Positions 198 through 50,850 of a DNA stretch of 64,000 nt are shown piece by piece; the first letter of the stretch is position 1; each line of letters starts with the position of its first letter. Both the position numbers and the translations under genes were made by a program. Source of the DNA: Escherichia coli (GTDB taxonomy: Bacteria > Pseudomonadota > Gammaproteobacteria > Enterobacterales > Enterobacteriaceae); NCBI GenBank assembly GCA_005400705.1, contig GCA_005400705.1_4079.1. The stretch is one strand, 5' to 3'. The notes under the pieces are model-generated. The model made no database searches, was not told the origin of the DNA, and was given only the letters and a program-made list of their open reading frames with translations.

Positions 198-202
198 AAG
201 TG

Positions 203-230
203 GGGACAACTTATAAAAATATGATATAAT
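203..230 (+). promoter_or_regulatory. sigma70-type early promoter (GGGACA-N16-TGaTATAAT)
   Basis: -35-like GGGACA 203-208, 16-nt spacer, extended -10 TGaTATAAT 222-230; same architecture recurs at 21207, 44179 and 49898. Confidence 0.55.
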
Positions 231-264: not shown

Positions 265-510
265 ATGGAACAAGAAAATAATCAAATTCAACTAACCCTT
301 CTAGACCTAATCAATGCTGCAAAAATCATGGAAGCTGCTGTTGCACGAAACACCTTTAAAGTTGAAGAACTTGTTGAGGTTGCTCCAGTTGTATCTAAAT
401 TTGTTTCTTTTGCAAATGTAGCTCTTGAAGATATTAAAGCACAAGAAGATGCAGCTAAAGAAGAAGCTGAATCACAAGATAGTGAAACTCAAGAAGATAA
501 AGGAGAATAA
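265..510 (+). CDS. small highly acidic early protein (hypothetical)
   Basis: ORF-track frame 250..510; start moved to ATG 265 because GGAGAG at 252-257 gives a 7-nt spacing; C-terminal third is Glu/Asp-rich. Confidence 0.6.
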   Translation: MEQENNQIQLTLLDLINAAKIMEAAVARNTFKVEELVEVAPVVSKFVSFANVALEDIKAQEDAAKEEAESQDSETQEDKGE

Positions 511-512
511 TT

Positions 513-1169
513 ATGGCAGCTATTCGTCATGTTGGTGTAATGCGTAATACAGGTTCTCGTGTTTTTGTTGTTTGGCGTTCACTACCAGATGATCCTGAAC
601 ACTGCCTTATCGTTTATCGTGATTCACTACCAGAAGCATATGTTCACGCAGTAACTGATATTGTTATGGGTCATGGTCAATCTAATATTGATTTGTGGGA
701 AGTAATGCATAAAATTGGTTATCTCGATGGACGCAAAATGCTAGATGTTCTACACAACATGCAGCATCTACGTCGCGTTCGTACTTGTGACATTGATATG
801 CACACTGGTGGTAATAATAAAATTTCTCTTGATGTTCTAAACAAAGCATTAGATGAAAATCAAGCGAAAGTACAAGAAGATGGTAAAGTAAAAGACTTTA
901 ACCCATTCAATCCACAAGAAGCAGACACTAAAGTAGAAGAAGCTACTATTGTAGAAAAACTTCTCTCTGATGCACAAAAATATGAACAACTGGCTAAAGA
1001 ACATTATGAACGTGCATACAATTTAGAGCCAAGCTTGCGTCCGCAAACACAAGTTGTTGAACAACCGAAAGATAGTAAAACAATTTATCTAGAAATTCCA
1101 GAAGGTATTTCACAGACTAAAGCTATTGAGAAAGTAAAACAACTATTTGCAGAACGTAAAGCAAAATAA
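513..1169 (+). CDS. hypothetical protein
   Basis: 218-aa ORF with AAGGAGA RBS upstream of ATG 513; tightly packed in the same operon; no family recognised. Confidence 0.6.
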   Translation: MAAIRHVGVMRNTGSRVFVVWRSLPDDPEHCLIVYRDSLPEAYVHAVTDIVMGHGQSNIDLWEVMHKIGYLDGRKMLDVLHNMQHLRRVRTCDIDMHTGGNNKISLDVLNKALDENQAKVQEDGKVKDFNPFNPQEADTKVEEATIVEKLLSDAQKYEQLAKEHYERAYNLEPSLRPQTQVVEQPKDSKTIYLEIPEGISQTKAIEKVKQLFAERKAK

Positions 1170-1172
1170 AAT

Positions 1173-1766
1173 ATGAAAAAGAATGAATTAGATGAAGCAA
1201 TTAAAGGTTTATCTAATGTATGTTTTAGTGGCGGGGCAGCAGGTGCTGACCGCCTTTTTTCTATCTATGCAAAAAATAATGGATTTGAAGTTATTAATTT
1301 TTCATTCAAAGGTCATGAGCATAGTGTAGATGAAAGTACTATATTAGAAATACCATCCAATATTCTATCTGATATTTCTATATTAAATCAACTAAACATT
1401 GCATGTTACTCGTTGCAGCGAAAAGTACCAAAGCCTGGTTCTTATGTTTACAACTTACTTGCAAGGAATAGTTATCAGATACTTAATACAGAAAGAATAT
1501 ATTGTATTGCAAATATCACATCACCAACTAAGGTAAGTGGTGGTACTGCATGGGCAGTACAGATGTATATGGATTCAGTTGAAAATCCTGAAATTTATTG
1601 TTATGATATGAATTCACGTTCAGTATTTTATTTCGATACAGTACTGAAAGAGTTCACACAAACATTCGTCGTTCCAGCACCACATGGTAACTGGACTGGT
1701 ATTGGTTCACGCAATGCCACCGAAAAACATATGGAACATTTTATTACATTTTTCAAGGAAGAATAA
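1173..1766 (+). CDS. Rossmann-like SLOG/DprA-like protein (putative nucleotide-binding or nucleotide-processing)
   Basis: 197-aa ORF with N-terminal glycine-rich loop FSGGAAGADRLF and later VSGGTAWAV, reminiscent of DprA/LOG/YpsA (SLOG) signatures; stop overlaps the td start (TAATG). Confidence 0.4.
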   Translation: MKKNELDEAIKGLSNVCFSGGAAGADRLFSIYAKNNGFEVINFSFKGHEHSVDESTILEIPSNILSDISILNQLNIACYSLQRKVPKPGSYVYNLLARNSYQILNTERIYCIANITSPTKVSGGTAWAVQMYMDSVENPEIYCYDMNSRSVFYFDTVLKEFTQTFVVPAPHGNWTGIGSRNATEKHMEHFITFFKEE

Positions 1767-2695
1767 TGAAACAACTACAAGAACTATATCAAAAAATTCT
1801 AGATGAAGGCGTAGAAAGCGTTGACCGTACTGGTGTTGGAACAATCAAACTTATCGGTCAACAAATGCGTTTTGACCTTAAAGATGGTTTCCCAGCAGTG
1901 ACGACAAAACGTCTAGCTTGGAAAGCAATGACTTCAGAATTACTATGGTTTATTGAAGGTTCCCATGATGAGCGTCGCCTTTGTGAAATTTTGCATGGAA
2001 CTCGTGATACAGAAAAGAAAACTATTTGGACAGATAATTACCTAAATCAAGGCGTTGCTCTTGGTTATACTGATGGTGAGTTAGGTCCAGTGTATGGTAA
2101 GCAATGGCGTGAATGGGAAGATTATAAATTTAGTTCCAGTACTGAAGAAATTCAAGAATTAAAAGATAAAGGATACAAAGTTATCGATTATACTGGATCG
2201 CATGGTGTTGTTATGAAACGTACAACTGACCAATTACAGGAACTAATCAAAGGTATAAAGTCCGATCCATATGGTCGTCGCCATATTCTAAGTGCATGGA
2301 ACGTTGGTGAGCTTGATGATATGACGTTACCACCTTGTCATAGCTTTGTACAATTTTGTGTAGTACAAGGGAAACTAAGCTGCATTCTACATCAAAGATC
2401 CGCTGATCTATTTTTGGGAGTTCCATTTAATATCAGTAGTTATTCACTACTAACTCATATGATTGCACAAATTACTGGTTTAGATGTTGGTGAATTTATT
2501 TGGAATGGTGGTGATTGTCACATTTATAAAAACCACGTTGAACAAGTAAAAGAACAACTACAGCGAAAACCTCGTGAATTACCTGAATTGTGGCTTGATC
2601 CTACAATTACTAATATTGAAGATTTCACTATGGATTCTTTTAAATTAGTGAATTACAACCCAATGCCAACAATTAAAGCACCTATGGCTGTATAA
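1766..2695 (+). CDS. td: thymidylate synthase
   Basis: 309-aa product with canonical ThyA motifs including catalytic LPPCH (TLPPCHSFVQF) and a T4 Td-like N-terminus; uninterrupted reading frame. Confidence 0.95.
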   Translation: MKQLQELYQKILDEGVESVDRTGVGTIKLIGQQMRFDLKDGFPAVTTKRLAWKAMTSELLWFIEGSHDERRLCEILHGTRDTEKKTIWTDNYLNQGVALGYTDGELGPVYGKQWREWEDYKFSSSTEEIQELKDKGYKVIDYTGSHGVVMKRTTDQLQELIKGIKSDPYGRRHILSAWNVGELDDMTLPPCHSFVQFCVVQGKLSCILHQRSADLFLGVPFNISSYSLLTHMIAQITGLDVGEFIWNGGDCHIYKNHVEQVKEQLQRKPRELPELWLDPTITNIEDFTMDSFKLVNYNPMPTIKAPMAV

Positions 2696-21164: not shown

Positions 21165-21206
21165 GATTGTCTCCAAAATAAATCGGGTATATCTTTATTT
21201 ACCTTG

Positions 21207-21234
21207 TAGACAAACCGTAAGAATGTGATATAAT
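21207..21234 (+). promoter_or_regulatory. sigma70-type early promoter (TAGACA-N16-TGaTATAAT)
   Basis: -35-like TAGACA 21207-21212, 16-nt spacer, extended -10 TGaTATAAT 21226-21234, about 40 nt upstream of the clpA-like start. Confidence 0.6.
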
Positions 21235-21274: not shown

Positions 21275-23563
21275 ATGAATCTTACTCAATTGTTCAAAAA
21301 AAGCGACGAACTGGCAACATCTCTAGGTCATACATTCTTGACTATTGACCACGTAAGTGCCACAGTACTGACTATTGATAGCATCAAGAACGTATTTGAA
21401 GATATGAACATTGATGCAGACAAACTGCACAACCGCCTAATGAACTATCTTAAAAATACAACAGTTCCACATGCACCAAAAAGTGTTAAAGATGAAGACG
21501 CGAATCGCACTTCACTTCTAGTGAATCGCGTTGTACATGAGCTTTCAAAAAAATCAGTTATTGAACAACTAAAAAGTGATGATTTTTCGATTGATGCATA
21601 TTTTGTTCTATTCGAATGTCTGTCTTTCCCTAACACAGCACTAGAAGCTGCGTTAAAAGAAGAAGGTGTTAGCTGTACTGAAGCTGCACGTGCATTACAG
21701 AAACACGTTGAGTCACTTGATAAGGGTATCAACTTACAAAGTATTAATGACGAACCGATTGGAGATAAAAAAGTGGCCCAACAGCAGCAATCATCTAAAC
21801 AAAAAGGTTTGGAAGACTATACAACGAATCTAACTGCTCTTGCAAAAGAAGGCAAACTAGATCCTATGATTGGTCGCCAGAAAGAATTGTCTGCATTGAT
21901 TGAGACTCTTGCTCGCAAAACCAAAAAGAATGCTATTCTCACTGGTGAAGCTGGTGTAGGTAAAACACAAATCATCGACGGGCTTGCACAAGCTATTGCT
22001 GATGGTAACGTACCTGAACACTTGAAAGACGTTGAAATTCTTTCACTAAATGTTGGTGCATTGACTGCTGGTACTAAGTATCGTGGTGAGTTTGAAGAAC
22101 GCATCGACAATTTGCTAAAAGAACTAAAGAAACGTGAAAATACTATTGTTTTCATTGATGAAATTCATATTATGGTTGGGGCTGGTTCCGCAAGTAATGG
22201 TTCTATGGACATGAGCAATATGCTTAAGCCAGCACTTTCACGTGGTGAGATTCGTGTAATTGGTGCAACAACATATGATGAATATCGTAAAAATATCGAG
22301 AAAGATAGTGCATTAACTCGTCGTTTTATGAAAATTGACGTAGTTGAGCCGACAATTGATGAAACTCGTGCAATTGTTAATGGTTTGAAACCAACGTATG
22401 AAAAATTCCATAATGTTGAGTTCACATCTGATGCAATGGATGCTGTAATTTCTCTCAGTGATAAATTCCTGAAGAATAAGCACTTCCCAGATAAAGCAAT
22501 TGATCTAATGGACGCTGCTGCTGCAAAAGTTCGTTCACGTGACAACAATAGTAAGCTTATTACTGCCAATTTGATTCAAGAAGTTGTTGCTGGTATTGCC
22601 AATTTGGATATCAACGTGGTTGCATGTACTGAAAGTGATCGTATGCGTAATCTACCAGATGCACTACGCTCACGTGTATACGGTCAAGAGGAAGCTATTC
22701 AAAAATTAGTTGATAACGTGATGGTAGCTCGTGCAGGACTGCGTGACAAATCTAGTGTTCAGGGTGCATTTATGTTTGTTGGACCATCTGGCACTGGTAA
22801 AACAGAAATTACCAAAGCATTAGCAGATGCAACTGGTGCGGAACTGATTCGCTTTGATATGTCAGAATTTTCTCAAGAACATACTGTTTCTAAACTAATT
22901 GGTTCACCTCCAGGTTATGTTGGTCATGATTCTGGTAACGGTTTACTGTTGGATAAAATTGAGCAGTTCCCTAATGCAGTACTGTTACTTGATGAAATTG
23001 AAAAAGCAGATCGTAAAGTCCTACTAACCTTCCTACAGGTTTTGGATGAAGGTCGCCTGACTGGTTCACAAGGTAAAACTGTATATTTTAATAACGTAAC
23101 TGTTATTATGACTACAAACCTTGGTGCAGCAGATTCAACGAAGCGTAGTATTGGTATGAGCGGTAGTGATACTGCACAAGACAAGGCAATTAAAGCATTC
23201 TTGCCACCAGAGTTCATTAACCGTATTGATAGTATCGTTACGTTTAAAGACCTAAGCAGTGAAGCTATTGACAGCATCATTGATAAGTTCATGGGCAGTT
23301 TGAATGAACAAGTCAAAGACCGCAATGTTAAAGTTACATTGACAAAAGCTGCACGTGAATGGCTTGCGAAAAATGGGGTAAAAGTTGGCATGGGTGCACG
23401 TCCAATGAAACGTACCATTGAACAAAACATTCGTGTACCACTAGCTAAAGAAATGTTGTGTGGTTCACTTGTTAATGGTGGAAACATTACATTTGATGTT
23501 ATTGATGGTAAAATCGGTATTAAACCGAAACGTTCCAAAGCTGTAGATAAAGCACTGGCATAA
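21275..23563 (+). CDS. clpA: ClpA-type two-ring AAA+ unfoldase (Clp ATPase)
   Basis: Clp N-domain; D1 Walker [10 protein letters not shown]1 pore loop [10 protein letters not shown]1 Walker B IVFIDEIH; D2 Walker [10 protein letters not shown]2 pore loop GYVGHD, D2 Walker [10 protein letters not shown]; long colinear similarity to E. coli ClpA as recalled from memory; start set at ATG 21275 (AGGAGA RBS) rather than the GTG at 21254. Confidence 0.9.
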
Positions 23564-23565
23564 AA

Positions 23566-23598
23566 AAGAAAAGGAGAGCAATATGCTCTCCTTTTTTA
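23566..23598. terminator. bidirectional intrinsic terminator
   Basis: AAGGAGAGC / GCTCTCCTT inverted repeat followed by TTTTTATT between convergent clpA-like and giant baseplate genes. Confidence 0.75.
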
Positions 23599-37111: not shown

Positions 37112-37172
37112 AATTTATTCCTTTAAATCAGTAAAGTACTAGATCAGTACTGGGAATTATATATAGAAATAT

Positions 37173-37200
37173 TTATTCAAAAAGAAAAGCACTCCGAAGA
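37173..37200 (-). terminator. intrinsic terminator after the gp25-like gene
   Basis: AAGCACTC-TTCG-GAGTGCTT hairpin on the minus strand followed by TTCTTTTTG. Confidence 0.6.
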
Positions 37201-37212
37201 GTGCTTTTATAA

Positions 37213-44132: not shown

Positions 44133-44178
44133 CTTTTTGATTCTCCATAATAAGGGAACATTTGATGTATTTATACGT

Positions 44179-44206
44179 GGGACAAACTGCTTTTTGGTGC
44201 TATAAT
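44179..44206 (+). promoter_or_regulatory. sigma70-type early promoter (GGGACA-N16-TGcTATAAT)
   Basis: GTGGGACA 44177-44184, 16-nt spacer, extended -10 TGcTATAAT 44198-44206; shares the core TGGTGCTATAAT with the promoter at 49898. Confidence 0.6.
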
Positions 44207-44263
44207 AACATTGATGGTACAAGGATTGTACCTATTGGATTTAAACATGGAGAGTAAAATACA

Positions 44264-45103
44264 ATGACAAATAGACCAAAGCGTAAAAAGTATCTCAATA
44301 ATGCTGATTTACTGCGTGAAATACAAAAAAGTAAAATTTCATATTGCTGGTTATTAGACAAATCATATAGTATGTATGATTATATTGTTTTTCATGAGTC
44401 AGAAATTACTGCTGAGTTACTAGAAAAAGCTAAGGCAGCCCGAATTAAACGACTGAACAATGAAATGCTTGATAGTATTCGTGAAAAGGAAAATATGAGT
44501 GCTAAAAAAGCTAAAGAATATGCAGATGAACACAATTTAGTTATCACTGACGTTCCAATTGATGAAGTTGTTATTCGTGTTATTACAGATGAACATATTC
44601 CACCAGATACTAGAGTTAACTTTGAACCATTCAAGCATTATATTGTAGATAATGAAGGTATTCTCTATGAAGTTTGTCGTTCTCACTGGAAAGGCGACCT
44701 TGAAACTGGTGAATTCAGTACTGTTCATGGTAAAATTACAAATGAACTTGGGAAGATGTTCATTAAACTTGCAGAGGAAATCTCACACAAATCTAATTAC
44801 AGAAACTATACATACTTAGATGAAATGATGGGTGATGCAAGAATACAATTAGTTAAAAACGCACTTCTCTTTAAAGAGAGCATTCTTTATAAAAAAGATA
44901 AACCAGCAGTTCAGCTAAATCCTTTCTCTTACTATACATCATTCGTAAACAATAGTTTTCGTTCTATATTGAATAGTGAGAAAAATGTTCGAAATATACG
45001 TGATGATTTACTTGAAATGCATGGCTTTACGCCATCACATACACGTCAAATTGAAATTGAATTGAACATGATTGAAAGGAAAAATGAAGATGGCTCTGTT
45101 TGA
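44264..45103 (+). CDS. late-transcription sigma factor, gp55-like
   Basis: 279 aa; N-terminal KKYLNNADLLREIQKSK resembles the gp55 family N-terminus as recalled from memory; conserved T4 synteny gp55-gp47-gp46. Confidence 0.55.
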   Translation: MTNRPKRKKYLNNADLLREIQKSKISYCWLLDKSYSMYDYIVFHESEITAELLEKAKAARIKRLNNEMLDSIREKENMSAKKAKEYADEHNLVITDVPIDEVVIRVITDEHIPPDTRVNFEPFKHYIVDNEGILYEVCRSHWKGDLETGEFSTVHGKITNELGKMFIKLAEEISHKSNYRNYTYLDEMMGDARIQLVKNALLFKESILYKKDKPAVQLNPFSYYTSFVNNSFRSILNSEKNVRNIRDDLLEMHGFTPSHTRQIEIELNMIERKNEDGSV

Positions 45104-46121
45104 TAAAGCAATTACATTCACTGATATTCACTTAGGTTTAAAGAATAACAGCAAGCAACACAATGAAGATTGTTTAAACTTCATTAAATTCATGATTGAT
45201 GTAGCTAAAAAAAATAATATCAAAGTTTGTGTTTTTATGGGAGATTATTTTCATAATAGAAGTAATATCAATATCCAAACACTAAACTATGGTTTACAAA
45301 TTCTTCAATTATTAAATGATAATTTTGAAAAAGTATATTTTTTAGTAGGCAACCATGATATGTATCATAAAAACAAACGTGATATAACAAGTATCAATAT
45401 GGCTCAAGTTTATGAAAATATAGAATTCATTAATGAAATTACAACATTTGATGATTGTACTTTCATTCCATTTATGATTGAAGATGAATATAAGTTGTTA
45501 CCTCAACTAAAAAGTAAGTATGTTTTTGGTCACTTAGAGTTACCAGGTTACTTGCTTAACAAGATGGTAGAAATGCCTGATCATGGAAAAGAAACAGAAG
45601 GTTCTTTTGGTGGTTGTGAGTATGTTTTTAGTGGGCATTTTCATAAAAGGCAGTCAAAAACAACTTCAAAAGGAACTCGTGTAGTTTATACTGGTAATTG
45701 TTTTCCACATAATTTTTCCGATACATGGGATGATGCAAGAGGTGTGATGATTCTTGAACATGGTAAAGAACCTATTTTCAAGTCATGGGATAATGCACCA
45801 AAATATAGAACATTCACACTTTCTGAATTGTTGACTGATCCAAGCTATTATCTACAAGATAACACAATATCAAAAGTTCAAGTTGATATATCAATAACAA
45901 CTGATGAGATTAGTTTTATTCGTGATACATTTACTAAACTTTATAACATTAGGGAGTTTAATGTTGTAACTAGCAAGCAAAGTATTTCAGAATTAATCGA
46001 AGATGGTGTTAGTTTTGAAAGTACTGAATCAGTTGATGAGATAGTTTTACAGCAAATTATGGAAATTGATTCACCAATGTTTGATAAAAATCTTCTAATC
46101 CAAATTTACAGATCGTTATAA
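45090..46121 (+). CDS. recombination endonuclease subunit gp47 (Mre11-like)
   Basis: Calcineurin-like phosphoesterase motifs (FTDIHLG, GDYFHN, LVGNHDM); ORF-track 45072 start is TTG; ATG 45090 has an AAGGA RBS at 9 nt. Confidence 0.8.
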   Translation: MALFDKAITFTDIHLGLKNNSKQHNEDCLNFIKFMIDVAKKNNIKVCVFMGDYFHNRSNINIQTLNYGLQILQLLNDNFEKVYFLVGNHDMYHKNKRDITSINMAQVYENIEFINEITTFDDCTFIPFMIEDEYKLLPQLKSKYVFGHLELPGYLLNKMVEMPDHGKETEGSFGGCEYVFSGHFHKRQSKTTSKGTRVVYTGNCFPHNFSDTWDDARGVMILEHGKEPIFKSWDNAPKYRTFTLSELLTDPSYYLQDNTISKVQVDISITTDEISFIRDTFTKLYNIREFNVVTSKQSISELIEDGVSFESTESVDEIVLQQIMEIDSPMFDKNLLIQIYRSL

Positions 46122-46129
46122 GGGACTAT

Positions 46130-48277
46130 ATGCTAAACATTACACGTATATCTATGAGGAACTTCTTTTCATTTGGTAATGCACCACAATCAATTGATTT
46201 GAATGGTTCCGACATTTCATTAGTACTGGGTCAAAATAATGATGCAGTTATTGAAGGTGGTGACAGTACCGGACGTCGAAATGGTGTAGGGAAAAGTGCT
46301 ATTATTCAAGGATTAGTTTTTGGATTATTTGGTAAAAGTATTGGTAATGATATTAAAATTCCGAACCTAGTCAATAAAACTAATGGCAAAAATTGTGAAG
46401 TAGTTGTAGAGTTTGAAAAAGATGGTGTACAATATCTGGTTGAACGTGGGAGAAGTCCCACGTATTTCAATTTTGTTACTTTAGGGAAAGATAATAAAAT
46501 TGAAGATGAATCAAGGGGAGAAAAGAAAGACACACAAGAAGATTTGAATGAAATTCTTGGTATATCTCAATTATTATTTGAACATATTGTAGTACTGAAT
46601 GCTAACGTTGAACCTTTCTTAGCTTTATCCACACAAAAACAACGTGATATGATAGAAGAACTTCTTGGAATAACACAGTTGACGGAAAAAGCTGAAATGC
46701 TAAAGGAGATGTATAAGGATACTAAACGTTTAGCCGAACAAGAAAAGTTCAAAAATGAAACTGTAGCTGCAAGTAATGAACGTATTCAAAAAAGTATTGA
46801 GACACTACAAGAACAGGCAAACCAGTTTGAAATTGATAAAAATAATAGAGTATCTAAGTTAAATGAAGAGTTGAATATATATAAAACTTTAGACTTTAAT
46901 GACCTCTATGAAGCTGCTGATATAAAAGAGAAAGCTCTTATTCATAACGCAAAGCGTGGGGAAATCGAACGCCGTGTACAAGAGTTGGCTTTAAAATTTG
47001 ATGCATATGACCGTGAACTTGAAAGATCTAAAAGAGAATTAAATCTAAGCATTGATAAGCTAAAAACTATTGATATTAGTGCAGAATTGGAAAATCATAA
47101 TGAGTTGGAGATATGGAAACAGTTAGAGGGTATTCTAAAAGAGAATAATAACCAAAAACGTTTCAAAGAACAAAAACTAAACTCACTAAAAATAGCTTTA
47201 AAAGGATATGAATGTTCAATTAATGCTGAAATTGACAAATTATCAACAGTTGAAAACAGCAAATGTCCACTTTGTATGTCTGAATTAGAACATAACGAAC
47301 ATACTTCTTCAATTAAAGACAAAATCCAAAGTACTATTAATGATCTTCAAGCTAAAATTGATAGTTCTTCTTCTGAAATTGAAACATTACTTCAAGAAAT
47401 TGATAGTATTGAGATTTTTGATATGCCACCTAAGCCTGTGACATATTATAATACACTTTCAGAAGCACAAATGCATGAACATAAGCTTCAAGAATTGGTC
47501 AGAAAGAGTGAAGAAGAACAAATAAACATCTATGCAAATGAACTTATGTCATCATATGATGAACTTAACTCATATGAACTAATGGAAGTTCCAGATACAT
47601 TAAACAAATATGAAGTTAAAGAGTTAGAAATGACTGTAAATTCATTATCACAGCAATTAGATCGTGAATTGAAGACTACTAACACATTTATTAGCCAAAT
47701 TAATACCCTGAAGACTGATTCTTTAGTACCAATCGATTATAGCGACTATAATAATCTTGATAAAATGTCAAATCACCAAGATTTCTTGGTTAAATTACTT
47801 TTAAACAAGGATTCTTATGTCCGTAAACGTATTATTGAGCAAAATATCTCATATTTGAATACACGACTTCAGTACTATATCGATATGTGCGGTTCTGAGC
47901 ATAATGTTGTGTTTTTGAATGATTTGAGTGTTGAAATTGAGAAGAGTGGACAGTACTTTGACTATAAACAGCTTAGTAGAGGTGAGCGTACAAGGGTAAA
48001 CATCGCATTATCTTGTGCTTTCCGTGATACATATGAGTCATTATACCAAAGTATTAATATTCTTATCATTGATGAGATGATTGACCAAGGTCTTGACTCA
48101 AGTGGTGTTCTACGTGTGTGGTCTATCTTCCAAGATATGGCTGCTGTACGTGGTAAGAACGTTTATGCTATTTCCCACAGAGAAGAGTTACTATCTAAGA
48201 CTGAAAAAATCCTCAAAGTTGTTAAAGAGGACGGTTTCAGTACTGTTGAATATGCAACCCTTGACGATGTTTTCTAA
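46130..48277 (+). CDS. recombination endonuclease subunit gp46 (Rad50/SbcC-like ATPase)
   Basis: N-terminal Walker A GRRNGVGKS, long central coiled-coil-like region, C-terminal Walker B ILIIDEMIDQGLD. Confidence 0.85.
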   Translation: MLNITRISMRNFFSFGNAPQSIDLNGSDISLVLGQNNDAVIEGGDSTGRRNGVGKSAIIQGLVFGLFGKSIGNDIKIPNLVNKTNGKNCEVVVEFEKDGVQYLVERGRSPTYFNFVTLGKDNKIEDESRGEKKDTQEDLNEILGISQLLFEHIVVLNANVEPFLALSTQKQRDMIEELLGITQLTEKAEMLKEMYKDTKRLAEQEKFKNETVAASNERIQKSIETLQEQANQFEIDKNNRVSKLNEELNIYKTLDFNDLYEAADIKEKALIHNAKRGEIERRVQELALKFDAYDRELERSKRELNLSIDKLKTIDISAELENHNELEIWKQLEGILKENNNQKRFKEQKLNSLKIALKGYECSINAEIDKLSTVENSKCPLCMSELEHNEHTSSIKDKIQSTINDLQAKIDSSSSEIETLLQEIDSIEIFDMPPKPVTYYNTLSEAQMHEHKLQELVRKSEEEQINIYANELMSSYDELNSYELMEVPDTLNKYEVKELEMTVNSLSQQLDRELKTTNTFISQINTLKTDSLVPIDYSDYNNLDKMSNHQDFLVKLLLNKDSYVRKRIIEQNISYLNTRLQYYIDMCGSEHNVVFLNDLSVEIEKSGQYFDYKQLSRGERTRVNIALSCAFRDTYESLYQSINILIIDEMIDQGLDSSGVLRVWSIFQDMAAVRGKNVYAISHREELLSKTEKILKVVKEDGFSTVEYATLDDVF

Positions 48278-48284
48278 TTAAAGA

Positions 48285-48312
48285 TAAAGGGAGCCTTAGC
48301 TCCCTTTTTTTA
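48285..48312. terminator. bidirectional intrinsic terminator after gp46
   Basis: AAGGGAGC-CTTA-GCTCCCTT hairpin followed by TTTTTTAT; the stop codon of the convergent minus-strand nuclease gene lies in its loop. Confidence 0.75.
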
Positions 48313-48787
48313 TATCAACCATATTTAATTTACCGTCCTTAATCAGCTTTCTAGCTTGCTTTACACGAGCAGTAGTGTTACTACCAGGGACAACTCCTAA
48401 CCCTTCCAGAATCGCGTTTTGCTGTGTTGCTGGAAGCCTTTTAAACTTATTAACATCCACAGTTAGTGCTGTGTGATGTATGACTTGCTCTTCAGGTGGA
48501 ATGTTATTGTTCTTTTCAAGATAATCTGCCAGATTTCTTAGTACTTCATGAAGAGGTTTATCAGTTAAATGGCCCAGACAGCGTTTAAATGAATTTGCGA
48601 CCCTTCCTTCCCATCCATTCACCTCATTTTGAAGAACCTGTCTACAATGTTGATTTCCACCATGATAGTGGTCAAGTACTGGTTTAGTTATTTTTATTCC
48701 TATAATGGGGTCAATACCATTTTGTTTTTTTAGTAGTTCTTTTCTGTAAGCTGCTGCTTCATTGGGATTTTTCAATCTCTTTTTCAT
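48296..48787 (-). CDS. HNH / endonuclease VII-like (beta-beta-alpha-Me) nuclease
   Basis: 163 aa with LDHYHGGNQHCRQVLQNEVNGWEG resembling the His-Me finger core of T4 endonuclease VII / HNH proteins, as recalled from memory. Confidence 0.4.
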   Translation of the reverse strand: MKKRLKNPNEAAAYRKELLKKQNGIDPIIGIKITKPVLDHYHGGNQHCRQVLQNEVNGWEGRVANSFKRCLGHLTDKPLHEVLRNLADYLEKNNNIPPEEQVIHHTALTVDVNKFKRLPATQQNAILEGLGVVPGSNTTARVKQARKLIKDGKLNMVDIKKGS

Positions 48788-48793
48788 AGCGTT

Positions 48794-48822
48794 TTGTCCT
48801 GTTTCTGTAAATAATGTATATT
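48794..48822 (+). promoter_or_regulatory. putative sigma70 promoter of the homing endonuclease gene (TTGTCC-N17-TATATT)
   Basis: -35-like TTGTCC 48794-48799 and -10-like TATATT 48817-48822 upstream of ATG 48848; weaker match than the other promoters. Confidence 0.3.
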
Positions 48823-48847
48823 AAAAAGTTTTGTGAGGTACACAAGA

Positions 48848-49804
48848 ATGGCTAAAATTACACAACAACAATTCATAGATAAATCAATGAATATTCATGG
48901 TAGTATTTACACATACAATAAAACAATATATGTCAATGCACACCATCCAATAACTGTTACGTGTAACATTCACGGTGACTTCACAGTAGTTCCTAATAAA
49001 CACATTTCTGCAAAACAAGGTTGTCCAGTTTGTTCTGATATTGCAAAGAAAGAACGAAAGTCTAAAAAATCTCTGGGGTCATTCTTCACTGAAGCTACCG
49101 AAGTTCATGGTGATAAGTATGATTACTCAAAAGTGTTTTTTAACATTCGTTCAGAAAAGATTACTATTATATGCAAAGAAAAAGGTCATGGTGAATTTAA
49201 TCAAGTAGTTAGTAATCATCTATCTGGACAAGGTTGCCCTGAATGTGCCAAAATTCAAAATGGATTAAAGAAGAGAACTCCAGAAGATGTGTTCTTTGAA
49301 GATTGTAAGTTCATACACATGGATAATTATGATTACTCTAATACAAAATATAATGGCATGTATGAAACCATTACACCATTATGTAAGAGACATGGGGAAT
49401 TCACCGTACTAGCTACTAAGCATTATCATAGAAAACAAGGGTGTCCAGTTTGTTCAGACCAAGAACTAAAATCAAAACCTGTTATTGAAATTCAGAATTT
49501 TTTAAAAACGTGTGATATAATGTTTGAAATGGAAAAGAAATTTGATAGTTGTAAAAACATCAATCATTTACCATTTGATTTTTATATTCCTGAACTTAAT
49601 CTACTAATAGAATATGATGGTATCCAACACTTCAAACCAATAGAATACTTCGGTGGAGAAGAAGGTTTAGCTGAACAACAACGAAATGATGAAATTAAGA
49701 ATAAGTATTGTTATGATAATAATATTACTTTACTTAGAATAAAGTATTCAGATGACCACATTAAAATTATAAAAGACTTCATATCAAAAAATATAAATTA
49801 TTGA
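48848..49804 (+). CDS. free-standing homing endonuclease-like protein: zinc-ribbon repeat array plus Vsr/PD-(D/E)xK-type nuclease domain
   Basis: Three ~45-aa repeats ending in GCPxC (YDYS...HG.F...GCPVCSD) followed by LLIEYDGIQHF...RND.IKN...LLRI resembling the very-short-patch-repair-like endonuclease fold; ORF-track start is GTG at 48833; ATG 48848 has a GAGG RBS. Confidence 0.6.
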   Translation: MAKITQQQFIDKSMNIHGSIYTYNKTIYVNAHHPITVTCNIHGDFTVVPNKHISAKQGCPVCSDIAKKERKSKKSLGSFFTEATEVHGDKYDYSKVFFNIRSEKITIICKEKGHGEFNQVVSNHLSGQGCPECAKIQNGLKKRTPEDVFFEDCKFIHMDNYDYSNTKYNGMYETITPLCKRHGEFTVLATKHYHRKQGCPVCSDQELKSKPVIEIQNFLKTCDIMFEMEKKFDSCKNINHLPFDFYIPELNLLIEYDGIQHFKPIEYFGGEEGLAEQQRNDEIKNKYCYDNNITLLRIKYSDDHIKIIKDFISKNINY

Positions 49805-49816
49805 ATAGTTTTTATG

Positions 49817-49850
49817 AACCAAGTAATGTTTTGTTACTTGGTTTTTTTAT
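49817..49850 (+). terminator. intrinsic terminator
   Basis: AACCAAGTAA / TTACTTGGTT 10-bp stem with 7-nt loop followed by TTTTTTTAT. Confidence 0.75.
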
Positions 49851-49897
49851 ACTTCAAAAATGTACTAAGTACTTTTTTATTTTTTTATGATATTAGT

Positions 49898-49925
49898 GGG
49901 AAGATTTTAAAAATGGTGCTATAAT
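49898..49925 (+). promoter_or_regulatory. sigma70-type early promoter (GGGAAG-N16-TGcTATAAT) with no ORF downstream
   Basis: GTGGGAAG 49896-49903, 16-nt spacer, extended -10 TGcTATAAT 49917-49925; near-identical core to the gp55 promoter. Confidence 0.55.
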
Positions 49926-49973
49926 GTTTGTTGTAGTAATGACAATCCTGTTGAATGCAGAAATGCATATAAA

Positions 49974-50060
49974 TTAGAACCTGATCCTATCGAAAATGTA
50001 GATGGCAGATGAGCAGTTCAACAGTGCGATGAGCAAAAGAAACCCGTTAGATGTGGGCAT
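49974..50060 (-). CDS. candidate 28-aa hydrophobic peptide (MPTSNGFLLLIALLNCSSAIYIFDRIRF), antisense to the putative ncRNA
   Basis: ATG 50058-50060 on the minus strand preceded by GAGGGG at 8-nt spacing; predicted single hydrophobic helix; no convincing minus-strand promoter found. Confidence 0.2.
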   Translation of the reverse strand: MPTSNGFLLLIALLNCSSAIYIFDRIRF

Positions 50061-50362
50061 AGTTTGAACCCCTCACGGCAATGCGGCTCAATAAAGAACT
50101 CCGATAAGCATACAGAGAGTTCCTAGATAGACATATAAGGATCGCACCTTACCAGATTTGCTAAGGGAGTTTATTAAGTGATTTTAATAAACAGCCTGAA
50201 GTTTGATTGTATAGACTTTCAGGTGAGTGTCAGGATGATTAAGACTGACGACCGTTGCACATGACTGCGATAGAGAGAAACAGAGCAACCCGCTTTCGTT
50301 CTTAATATATTTTTAAGAAATTCGCAATACAATAAATGCTGAAACCATCAGCGTCAAGAAAT

Positions 50363-50388
50363 AGAGACTTCATTGTCTCTTTTTTATT
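50363..50388 (+). terminator. intrinsic terminator (AGAGAC-TTCATT-GTCTCT, TTTTTTATT)
   Basis: 6-bp stem with 6-nt loop followed by a T-tract; a second GC-rich 9-bp hairpin (50393-50414, UGCG loop, one U-G pair) follows with no T-tract. Confidence 0.6.
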
Positions 50389-50600
50389 GTCTTCATTCCC
50401 CTGCGGGGGGATGAAAATGTCCTCAACAAATCCCGTCAAGTATTAAATCTTTTAAAGTTCTTTATAATTAATTTAATTAAATGAATATGAGTTACGTAGT
50501 AACGAATATTCTTCAGCTAACGAATGAAATGAGTTAGATGAATCTAATAATATTAAAATTAATCCTTTCATAATTCAATTCAAATAATTCTGTAGTTTAA

Positions 50601-50630
50601 AACCAAAAAAACCAGCAACAATGTGCTGGC
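50601..50630 (-). terminator. intrinsic terminator after the 69-aa/278-aa operon
   Basis: CCAGCA-CATTGT-TGCTGG hairpin on the minus strand followed by TTTTTTTGG. Confidence 0.6.
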
Positions 50631-50640
50631 TATATGAAAA

Positions 50641-50850
50641 TTAGTGCTTCTCGTTTTGTTTTTTAATTTTTTTATTAAAAGACTTAACTAATAAGTCTCT
50701 ATCTATTAATGGCATATTAAGGAGTGTTCCATAGTCAATGTTATCCATATATACAGAACATTCCATTAGTGCATTTTTGATTTCTGACTTATTCAGTTCT
50801 ATCTCCTTCAGTACTTCTTGTATTTCTTCAGGAGATGACTGGAGAAGCAT
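50641..50850 (-). CDS. small hypothetical protein
   Basis: 69-aa ORF whose start overlaps the stop of the upstream 278-aa gene by one base. Confidence 0.45.
   Translation of the reverse strand: MLLQSSPEEIQEVLKEIELNKSEIKNALMECSVYMDNIDYGTLLNMPLIDRDLLVKSFNKKIKKQNEKH

Follow-up and report, generated by a model that had tools for sequence, protein, structure and literature searches.

The intergenic region upstream of the gp55-like late sigma factor gene in a 64,000-nt stretch of DNA (the window, by which we always mean the whole stretch analysed) holds a promoter-like motif that a preliminary description had grouped with three others on the plus strand as a recurring early class. This raises the questions of whether the four sites belong to one class, at what stage of infection they would act, and by what they would be read. 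The window derives from a jumbo myophage of Rak2-like type (genus Asteriusvirus); around the gp55 promoter, its identity is 99.8% to Escherichia phage SHEFM2K and 98.8% to 121Q. The complete genome of 121Q was put together from nine stretches, and its region of 277-341 kb is equivalent to the window. The ORF map of the window and the annotation of 121Q show the same layout, with mainly late structural genes, many of them on the minus strand, and a few plus-strand non-structural units interspersed; intergenic DNA makes up about 4% of the window. Separately, 121Q carries an HNH endonuclease gene between its gp6-like and gp25-like baseplate genes (stretch L001:13380-14144) that is absent from the window, where a 101-nt intergenic region (37112-37212) takes its place, a mobile-element polymorphism additional to the one described below.

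The four sites, which are the complete list for the window, are as follows.

202-230, plus strand: promoter S1, with box GGGGACA (202-208), 13 nt and extended -10 TGATATAAT (222-230).
21206-21234, plus strand: promoter S2, with box GTAGACA (21206-21212; 5/7 to the class box) and extended -10 TGATATAAT (21226-21234).
44178-44206, plus strand: promoter S3, with box TGGGACA (44178-44184; 7/7), 13 nt and extended -10 TGCTATAAT (44198-44206).
49897-49925, plus strand: promoter S4, with box TGGGAAG (49897-49903; 6/7, C to A at box position 6) and extended -10 TGCTATAAT (49917-49925).

All four plus-strand sites were read at the positions originally described, each with a spacer of 16 nt between the hexamers. 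The upstream hexamer had been given as GGGACA or TAGACA, which is correct for S1 to S3, whereas S4 reads GGGAAG. The -10 hexamer is an exact TATAAT in 4/4 sites, preceded by TGA at S1 and S2 and by TGC at S3 and S4. The boxes of S2 and S4 are the weaker ones, with box-only scores of about -1. The further resemblance noted between S3 and S4 was also found, as both carry TGGTGCTATAAT (44195-44206 and 49914-49925) and GTGGGA (44177-44182 and 49896-49901); GTGGGA is the 5′ part of the class box. The sites are all intergenic. S1 directly follows an intrinsic terminator (165-190), S4 directly follows a terminator at 49816-49844, and S2 is located in a divergent intergenic region. The distance from the -10 element to the gene start is 34-57 nt at S1 to S3, where the downstream genes have good Shine-Dalgarno sequences, while S4 faces a transcript without an ORF. 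Each site heads an insulated plus-strand unit closed by a strong terminator:

265-2695, plus strand: S1 unit, with two hypothetical genes, a DprA-like gene and thymidylate synthase; intrinsic terminator at 2698-2727.
21275-23563, plus strand: S2 unit, with a ClpA-like ATPase gene; bidirectional terminator hairpin at 23569-23595.
44264-48277, plus strand: S3 unit, with gp55-like late sigma, SbcD-like and SbcC-like genes; bidirectional terminator at 48286-48307.
49932 to about 50390, plus strand: S4 unit, a structured non-coding RNA of ~455 nt (49932-50390, its 5′ end placed from the promoter); intrinsic terminator at 50363-50380 followed by a T tract.

The core motif GACA-N13-TGNTATAAT has three exact matches on the plus strand of the window (S1 to S3) and none on the minus strand, compared with 0.05 expected on both strands from 200 dinucleotide shuffles. 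In 121Q it occurs 19 times on the plus strand and never on the minus strand, versus 0.23 expected, and our own comparison with the annotation tables placed 18 of these 19 sites in intergenic DNA directly upstream of genes or RNAs. A genome-wide motif search with a position-weight matrix had been proposed as a check of the class, and it did recover one: a leave-out matrix trained on 15 exact 121Q sites, all outside the window-equivalent region, ranked S1 to S4 first to fourth among ~128,000 window positions, with 18.9-22.3 bits versus 8.1 for the next best. When the matrix was iterated in 121Q, it returned 39 sites, all on the plus strand, of which about a quarter fall within annotated genes and may be false. 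The box was also recovered from the -10 side. Of 85 plus-strand occurrences of TGNTATAAT in 121Q, 25 match TGRRACR in register at 6/7 or better, compared with 0.95% of random positions and with none of the 16 minus-strand occurrences. Taken together without regard to the box, these 85 sites are most informative at -35 to -29 (TGGRACA), over an A tract (-44 to -40) and at a G in position -16. A class promoter would accordingly consist of TGnTATAAT in perfect form, preceded at a distance of 13 nt by the class-specific box T-G-R-R-A-C-R (about -35 to -29), with an A/T-rich tract farther upstream, and we put the class at ~25-40 copies per ~350-kb genome, all in sense orientation.

The genes behind the class sites of 121Q include ssb (two tandem copies), primase, an exonuclease, topoisomerase II, a DNA methyltransferase, ClpP-like, ClpA-like and nudix genes, the gene before DNA polymerase, tRNA genes and the gp55-like late sigma; four further sites precede ORF-less stretches.

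Comparison of the gp55 intergenic region in nine phages revealed that the order of elements is kept across genera (Asteriusvirus, Munch, Mimasvirus, Eneladusvirus and XaC1) while the rest of the region diverges: a minus-strand late promoter, the box, the spacer, TGnTATAAT, a leader hairpin and the Shine-Dalgarno sequence ACATGGAG. The box reads TGGGACA in the window, A4 and Munch, TGAGACA in EJP2, TGGAACG in GAP32, CBB and Yen9-04, and TGAAACG in XaC1. The gp55 promoter of RaK2 is diverged or degenerate (GAATAAAAAC), without TG in register. Two neighbouring elements of this region in the window are:

44168-44175, minus strand: T4-type late promoter TATAAATA for a minus-strand structural gene, 2 nt from the S3 box.
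44216-44232, plus strand: gp55 leader hairpin, whose stem covaries between genera and whose loop A(A/C)GGAT is conserved.

The back-to-back layout of late promoter and gp55 box is kept in all genera compared. Polymerase footprints on the two should overlap, so that gp55-directed late transcription could, speculatively, shut off the gp55 promoter. The stems of the leader hairpin read GTAC/GTAC, GTGC/GCAC, GGAC/GTCC, AAAAC/GTTTT and GAAC/GTTC across genera, and expression of the late sigma may be controlled post-transcriptionally at this hairpin.

In 7/7 relatives from several genera, the RNA promoter has both the box and TGnTATAAT, and the boxed motif is also carried by the RNA locus of CBB. 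In the window, the upstream half of S4 is within a mosaic patch relative to 121Q (window 48702-49866). This patch starts in the endonuclease VII gene, at its 5′ end, where identity to 121Q is only 75%, and reaches to ~50 nt upstream of the S4 -10 element; it includes an insertion:

48848-49804: inserted, mobile-looking ORF of 318 aa with treble-clef zinc-finger repeats and a DUF2726 nuclease-like domain; its own terminator is at 49816-49844.

Judged by its sequence, the inserted ORF looks like a homing endonuclease. Alignment to 121Q resumes at about 49866; several differences persist across the stretch with the S4 box, and from the -10 element on the two sequences are nearly identical. The RNA promoter of 121Q reads AGTGAGACAACTTTAAAGTTTGTGCTATAAT (GTGAGACAAC...TTTGTGCTATAAT), and the sequence downstream of it is 98% identical to the window; the upstream version of S4 also occurs in phage ECO103 4-12-1. 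The extra identity of S3 and S4 is lineage-specific and therefore marks no sub-class. The proposal that the late sigma gene and the RNA are co-regulated thus stands in the broad sense that both belong to the class, but not in the sense of a special pair within it.

The weakest reading, in which the sites are chance matches in AT-rich DNA without function, has on its side that generic sigma-70 consensus matches in the window show no enrichment over shuffles and that GTGGGA alone occurs there at chance level (16 found versus 16.3 expected), but it is refuted, practically beyond doubt, by the core-motif counts in the window and in 121Q, the leave-out matrix ranks, the complete strand bias, the intergenic placement, and the conservation of the gp55 and RNA promoters at orthologous positions across genera. 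Generic sigma-70 scans, being at shuffle level, cannot support the finding by themselves; the signal is the combination of elements in register. S1 to S4 are very probably members of one recurring, functional-looking promoter class.

A related class has already been predicted in Mimasvirus. The paper on the Pectobacterium phage CBB describes RpoD-like promoters that carry an UP-like tract and are gathered mainly in the presumed early region, and separates from these early promoters a divergent RpoD-like class in which TGAAACG replaces TTGACA next to a classic -10; the latter, reported for GAP32 too, heads genes of DNA synthesis as well as the gp55-like gene, and the late motif of CBB is ATAAATA (PMC5259590). 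Table S6 of that paper lists the MEME-predicted Promoter 1 as TG(A/G)AAC(G/A)-N13-TGnTATAAT (PMC5259590). Its members Porf_218, Porf_235 (ClpA) and Porf_244 (gp55) are orthologues of S1, S2 and S3, and Porf_193 (nudix) and Porf_262 (before DNA polymerase) match two class sites of 121Q. The same 29-nt register (7-nt box, 13 nt, TGnTATAAT) was found in the window, 121Q, CBB, GAP32 and Yen9-04. Because both the register and the orthologous members match, we regard the window sites as the Asteriusvirus version of the class predicted in Mimasvirus. The two versions share the box positions T, G, A and C and the orthologous genes served (ClpA, gp55, the CBB_218 unit, nudix and the pre-DNA-polymerase gene), and both stand apart from a canonical RpoD-like class and a late ATAAATA class. 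They differ in the box itself, which is TGGGACA/TGAGACA here and TGAAACG/TGGAACG there, both versions being predictions; the window boxes, by T1, G2, A5, C6 and purines at positions 3, 4 and 7, fit the common T-G-R-R-A-C-R and not the literal CBB consensus TGAAACG. The published list, from a scan limited to 100 nt upstream of ORFs, also differs in being without the RNA promoters. A description of the boxed class for Asteriusvirus was not found in the literature; the RaK2 paper makes no mention of promoters, and the N1M2 paper deals with phiKZ-like promoters.

How such promoters would be read can be considered separately for their two halves. Regions 2.4 and 3.0 of sigma-70 recognise an extended -10 element, and a canonical -35 element is then not needed. 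Through these two regions the host sigma-70 holoenzyme would be expected to recognise the extended -10 of the class promoters. The box T-G-R-R-A-C-R, on the other hand, is unlikely to serve as a -35 element, since conserved purines stand where the two T's matter most to sigma-70; in Mimasvirus, the box hexamer GAAACG agrees with TTGACA at only 2/6 positions. Host sigma-70 is expected to be essentially the same across the hosts of these phages. The box nevertheless reads TGGAACG or TGAAACG in sister genera, in the same register and before orthologous genes, from which we infer a phage-specified reader in addition to the use of sigma-70; this reader could be a phage-specified factor (activator) or a modified holoenzyme. 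An AsiA-like protein was sought in 121Q by tblastn with a T4 AsiA sequence as the only query, and the best match (E = 0.055) was not significant.

One candidate reader is the phage's own sigma-70-family sigma, which would recognise the box through an altered region 4.2:

121Q stretch L004:39267-40232, outside the window: gene 167 (CBB_513), a sigma-70-family protein in which the WW of region 2.3 is replaced by SS.

The product of gene 167 matches the Pfam models of sigma-70 regions 3, 4 and 2, of which region 3 alone exceeds the curated cut-off, regions 4 and 2 falling just short of it; its best solved relatives are RpoD, SigA and RpoS, and a hand alignment to a sigma-70 segment indicates that the recognition helix of region 4.2 differs at the -35-contacting positions. 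However, the conserved WW and other residues of regions 2.3/2.4 that read and melt TATAAT have been lost (ATWWIRQAITR has become ASSSIYMTVYN), and a protein without these -10-reading residues is an unlikely match for a perfect sigma-70 consensus extended -10. We therefore consider it rather improbable that this sigma reads the class.

The remaining question is timing, and here the label "early" given to these sites is not supported as it was put: a separate canonical class fits that label better, and the boxed class is attached to replication-stage genes. The canonical class of 121Q has the form AAAGTAC-TTGCAA/TTGACA-N16-TATAAT, without TGn, and occurs in 27 exact copies on the plus strand. 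Most of these are clustered at 135-153 kb, where dozens of tiny ORFs are each preceded by one copy, and this is likely to be the true early region. In the same region (stretches L005 and L006), the canonical promoters are followed by TTTACATC and a GC-rich hairpin. No member of the canonical class was found in intergenic, sense position in the window. The hexamers of S1 to S4 begin with GGG, TAG, GGG and GGG rather than with the TTG of the canonical early -35. Nor are the sites T4-type late promoters, as TATAAATA is absent from S1 to S4 on the plus strand; its five exact copies in the window are all intergenic and all located before structural genes. The phage has, as we conclude, three promoter classes, namely canonical early, boxed extended -10 and TATAAATA late, and the boxed one probably marks replication-stage rather than the earliest genes. 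If the box is read by a phage-specified factor, the class would be a delayed-early or middle regulon, a timing deduced from sequence and gene content; no transcription start or timing data for Asteriusvirus, Mimasvirus or Eneladusvirus were found in the literature consulted.

A reading closer to the original label is that these are plain early promoters, used by the unmodified host sigma-70 holoenzyme right after injection, with the box acting as a weak -35 element (GACA) for which the extended -10 compensates. Extended -10 promoters are established to function without a -35 element, and the perfect TGnTATAAT should be usable by the unmodified host holoenzyme from the first minute, so that "early" is still conceivable. 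The GACA kept in Asteriusvirus equals 4/6 positions of TTGACA, and sigma-70 region 4 could therefore contribute; the A-rich upstream tract resembles an UP element such as the CBB early class also has, and the 16-nt spacer is the same as in the canonical class. These points are offset by the replacement of the TT of TTGACA, the part most important to sigma-70, by conserved G/R, by boxes at the orthologous promoters of sister genera (TGAAACG or TGGAACG) that are not -35 elements, by the existence of a separate canonical class clustered in the small-ORF region, and by the genes served, which are those of replication, metabolism and the late sigma. We regard plain early use as unlikely, though as a reading that deserves to be kept in mind. 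The interpretation that we prefer, to which we give a probability of roughly 0.55, is that the boxed class consists of phage-wide, sigma-70-type extended -10 promoters with a phage-specified box reader, which would together form a delayed-early or middle regulon; its middle, factor-dependent part, taken by itself, is slightly favoured over the opposite.

The closest analogy for such a regulon is provided by the middle promoters of T4. These likewise combine a host-type -10 element, often with TGn, with a phage-specific element that replaces the -35; they serve replication, nucleotide-metabolism and late-sigma genes, and they are one of three classes beside canonical early and TATAAATA late promoters. 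The phage-specific element of T4, the MotA box (a/t)(a/t)TGCTT(t/c)A, has its centre at -30 and is read through sigma appropriation by AsiA and MotA. The phage class differs from it in the sequence and position of the box, and the MotA box is absent at S1 to S4. The extended -10 sigma-70 promoters of E. coli share with the class the TG at -15/-14, a perfect TATAAT and a non-canonical -35 region, whereas the conserved in-register 7-mer is found in the phage class and the cellular promoters are without a conserved upstream box.

The candidate RNA proposed downstream of S4 proved to be real, with strong covariation, a class promoter and a terminator. The 836-nt gap in which it is located (49805-50640) contains no ORF longer than 45 aa. 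ARAGORN found no tRNA or tmRNA, and Rfam gave nothing credible, either for the whole window at gathering thresholds or for 49800-50660 at E ≤ 1. Conserved counterparts of the gap region, with 67-76% identity, occur at 4-5 places per genome in CBB, GAP32 and in Erwinia, Serratia, Yersinia, Xanthomonas and Salmonella phages; for the window copy, synteny with endonuclease VII is kept in several genera. In 121Q there are exactly four copies, at about 90.3, 192.8, 247.5 and 326.6 kb, each with its own terminator and with its own class promoter immediately upstream (90270, 192745, 247441 and 326603). One of the paralogues is located directly downstream of gene 167. RNAalifold predicted 76 pairs from a 12-sequence alignment, 38 of them with compensatory double changes; 98% of the cells pair in the consensus structure, none of 500 shuffles reached any of the observed measures, and sliding the pair partners left only 4-14 pairs with double changes. 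Searches of IMG/VR with a conserved 27-nt motif of the RNA returned mostly ~350-380 kb jumbo contigs and three shorter contigs (23-174 kb), and the motif is limited to viral contigs of the Rak2-like jumbo-phage kind. The family was not found in the literature consulted. Just after the terminator, all paralogues and orthologues carry a further element:

50392-50415, plus strand: nearly invariant hairpin TTCATTCCCCTGCGGGGGGATGAA, without covariation.

Being conserved without covariation, this hairpin may act at the DNA or protein-binding level. It is followed by CTCAACAAATC(C/T)CGTCA at 50422-50438. Two further ideas about the RNA were set aside. As homologues, ncRNA001 and ncRNA002 of PA5oct, a distant relative in which RNA-seq supports them, would have supplied timing data, but they gave no nhmmer match and have promoters of another type. 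A reading of the four dispersed loci as multiple origins (R-loop primers) was considered, and GC skew offers no information on it, because the cumulative skew follows only gene orientation.

Tentatively, the box may be the operator of a phage-encoded middle-transcription system (an activator or sigma remodelling), MotA/AsiA-like but unrelated in sequence, that would be common to Rak2-like jumbo phages of several genera, with a ~450-nt structured RNA family as one of its outputs (4-5 paralogues per genome, each with a class promoter, a terminator and the invariant hairpin after it). The value of the promoter class itself is modest, as it was already predicted in related phages. What Asteriusvirus phages (121Q, PBECO4, phAPEC6 and therapeutic relatives) gain is a three-class transcription map, and conservation of the boxed class across genera with a genus-specific box makes the question of the box reader directly testable. 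The more valuable by-product of the promoter finding is the RNA family, which is strongly covarying, clade-restricted and without an Rfam match, and which deserves a separate follow-up.
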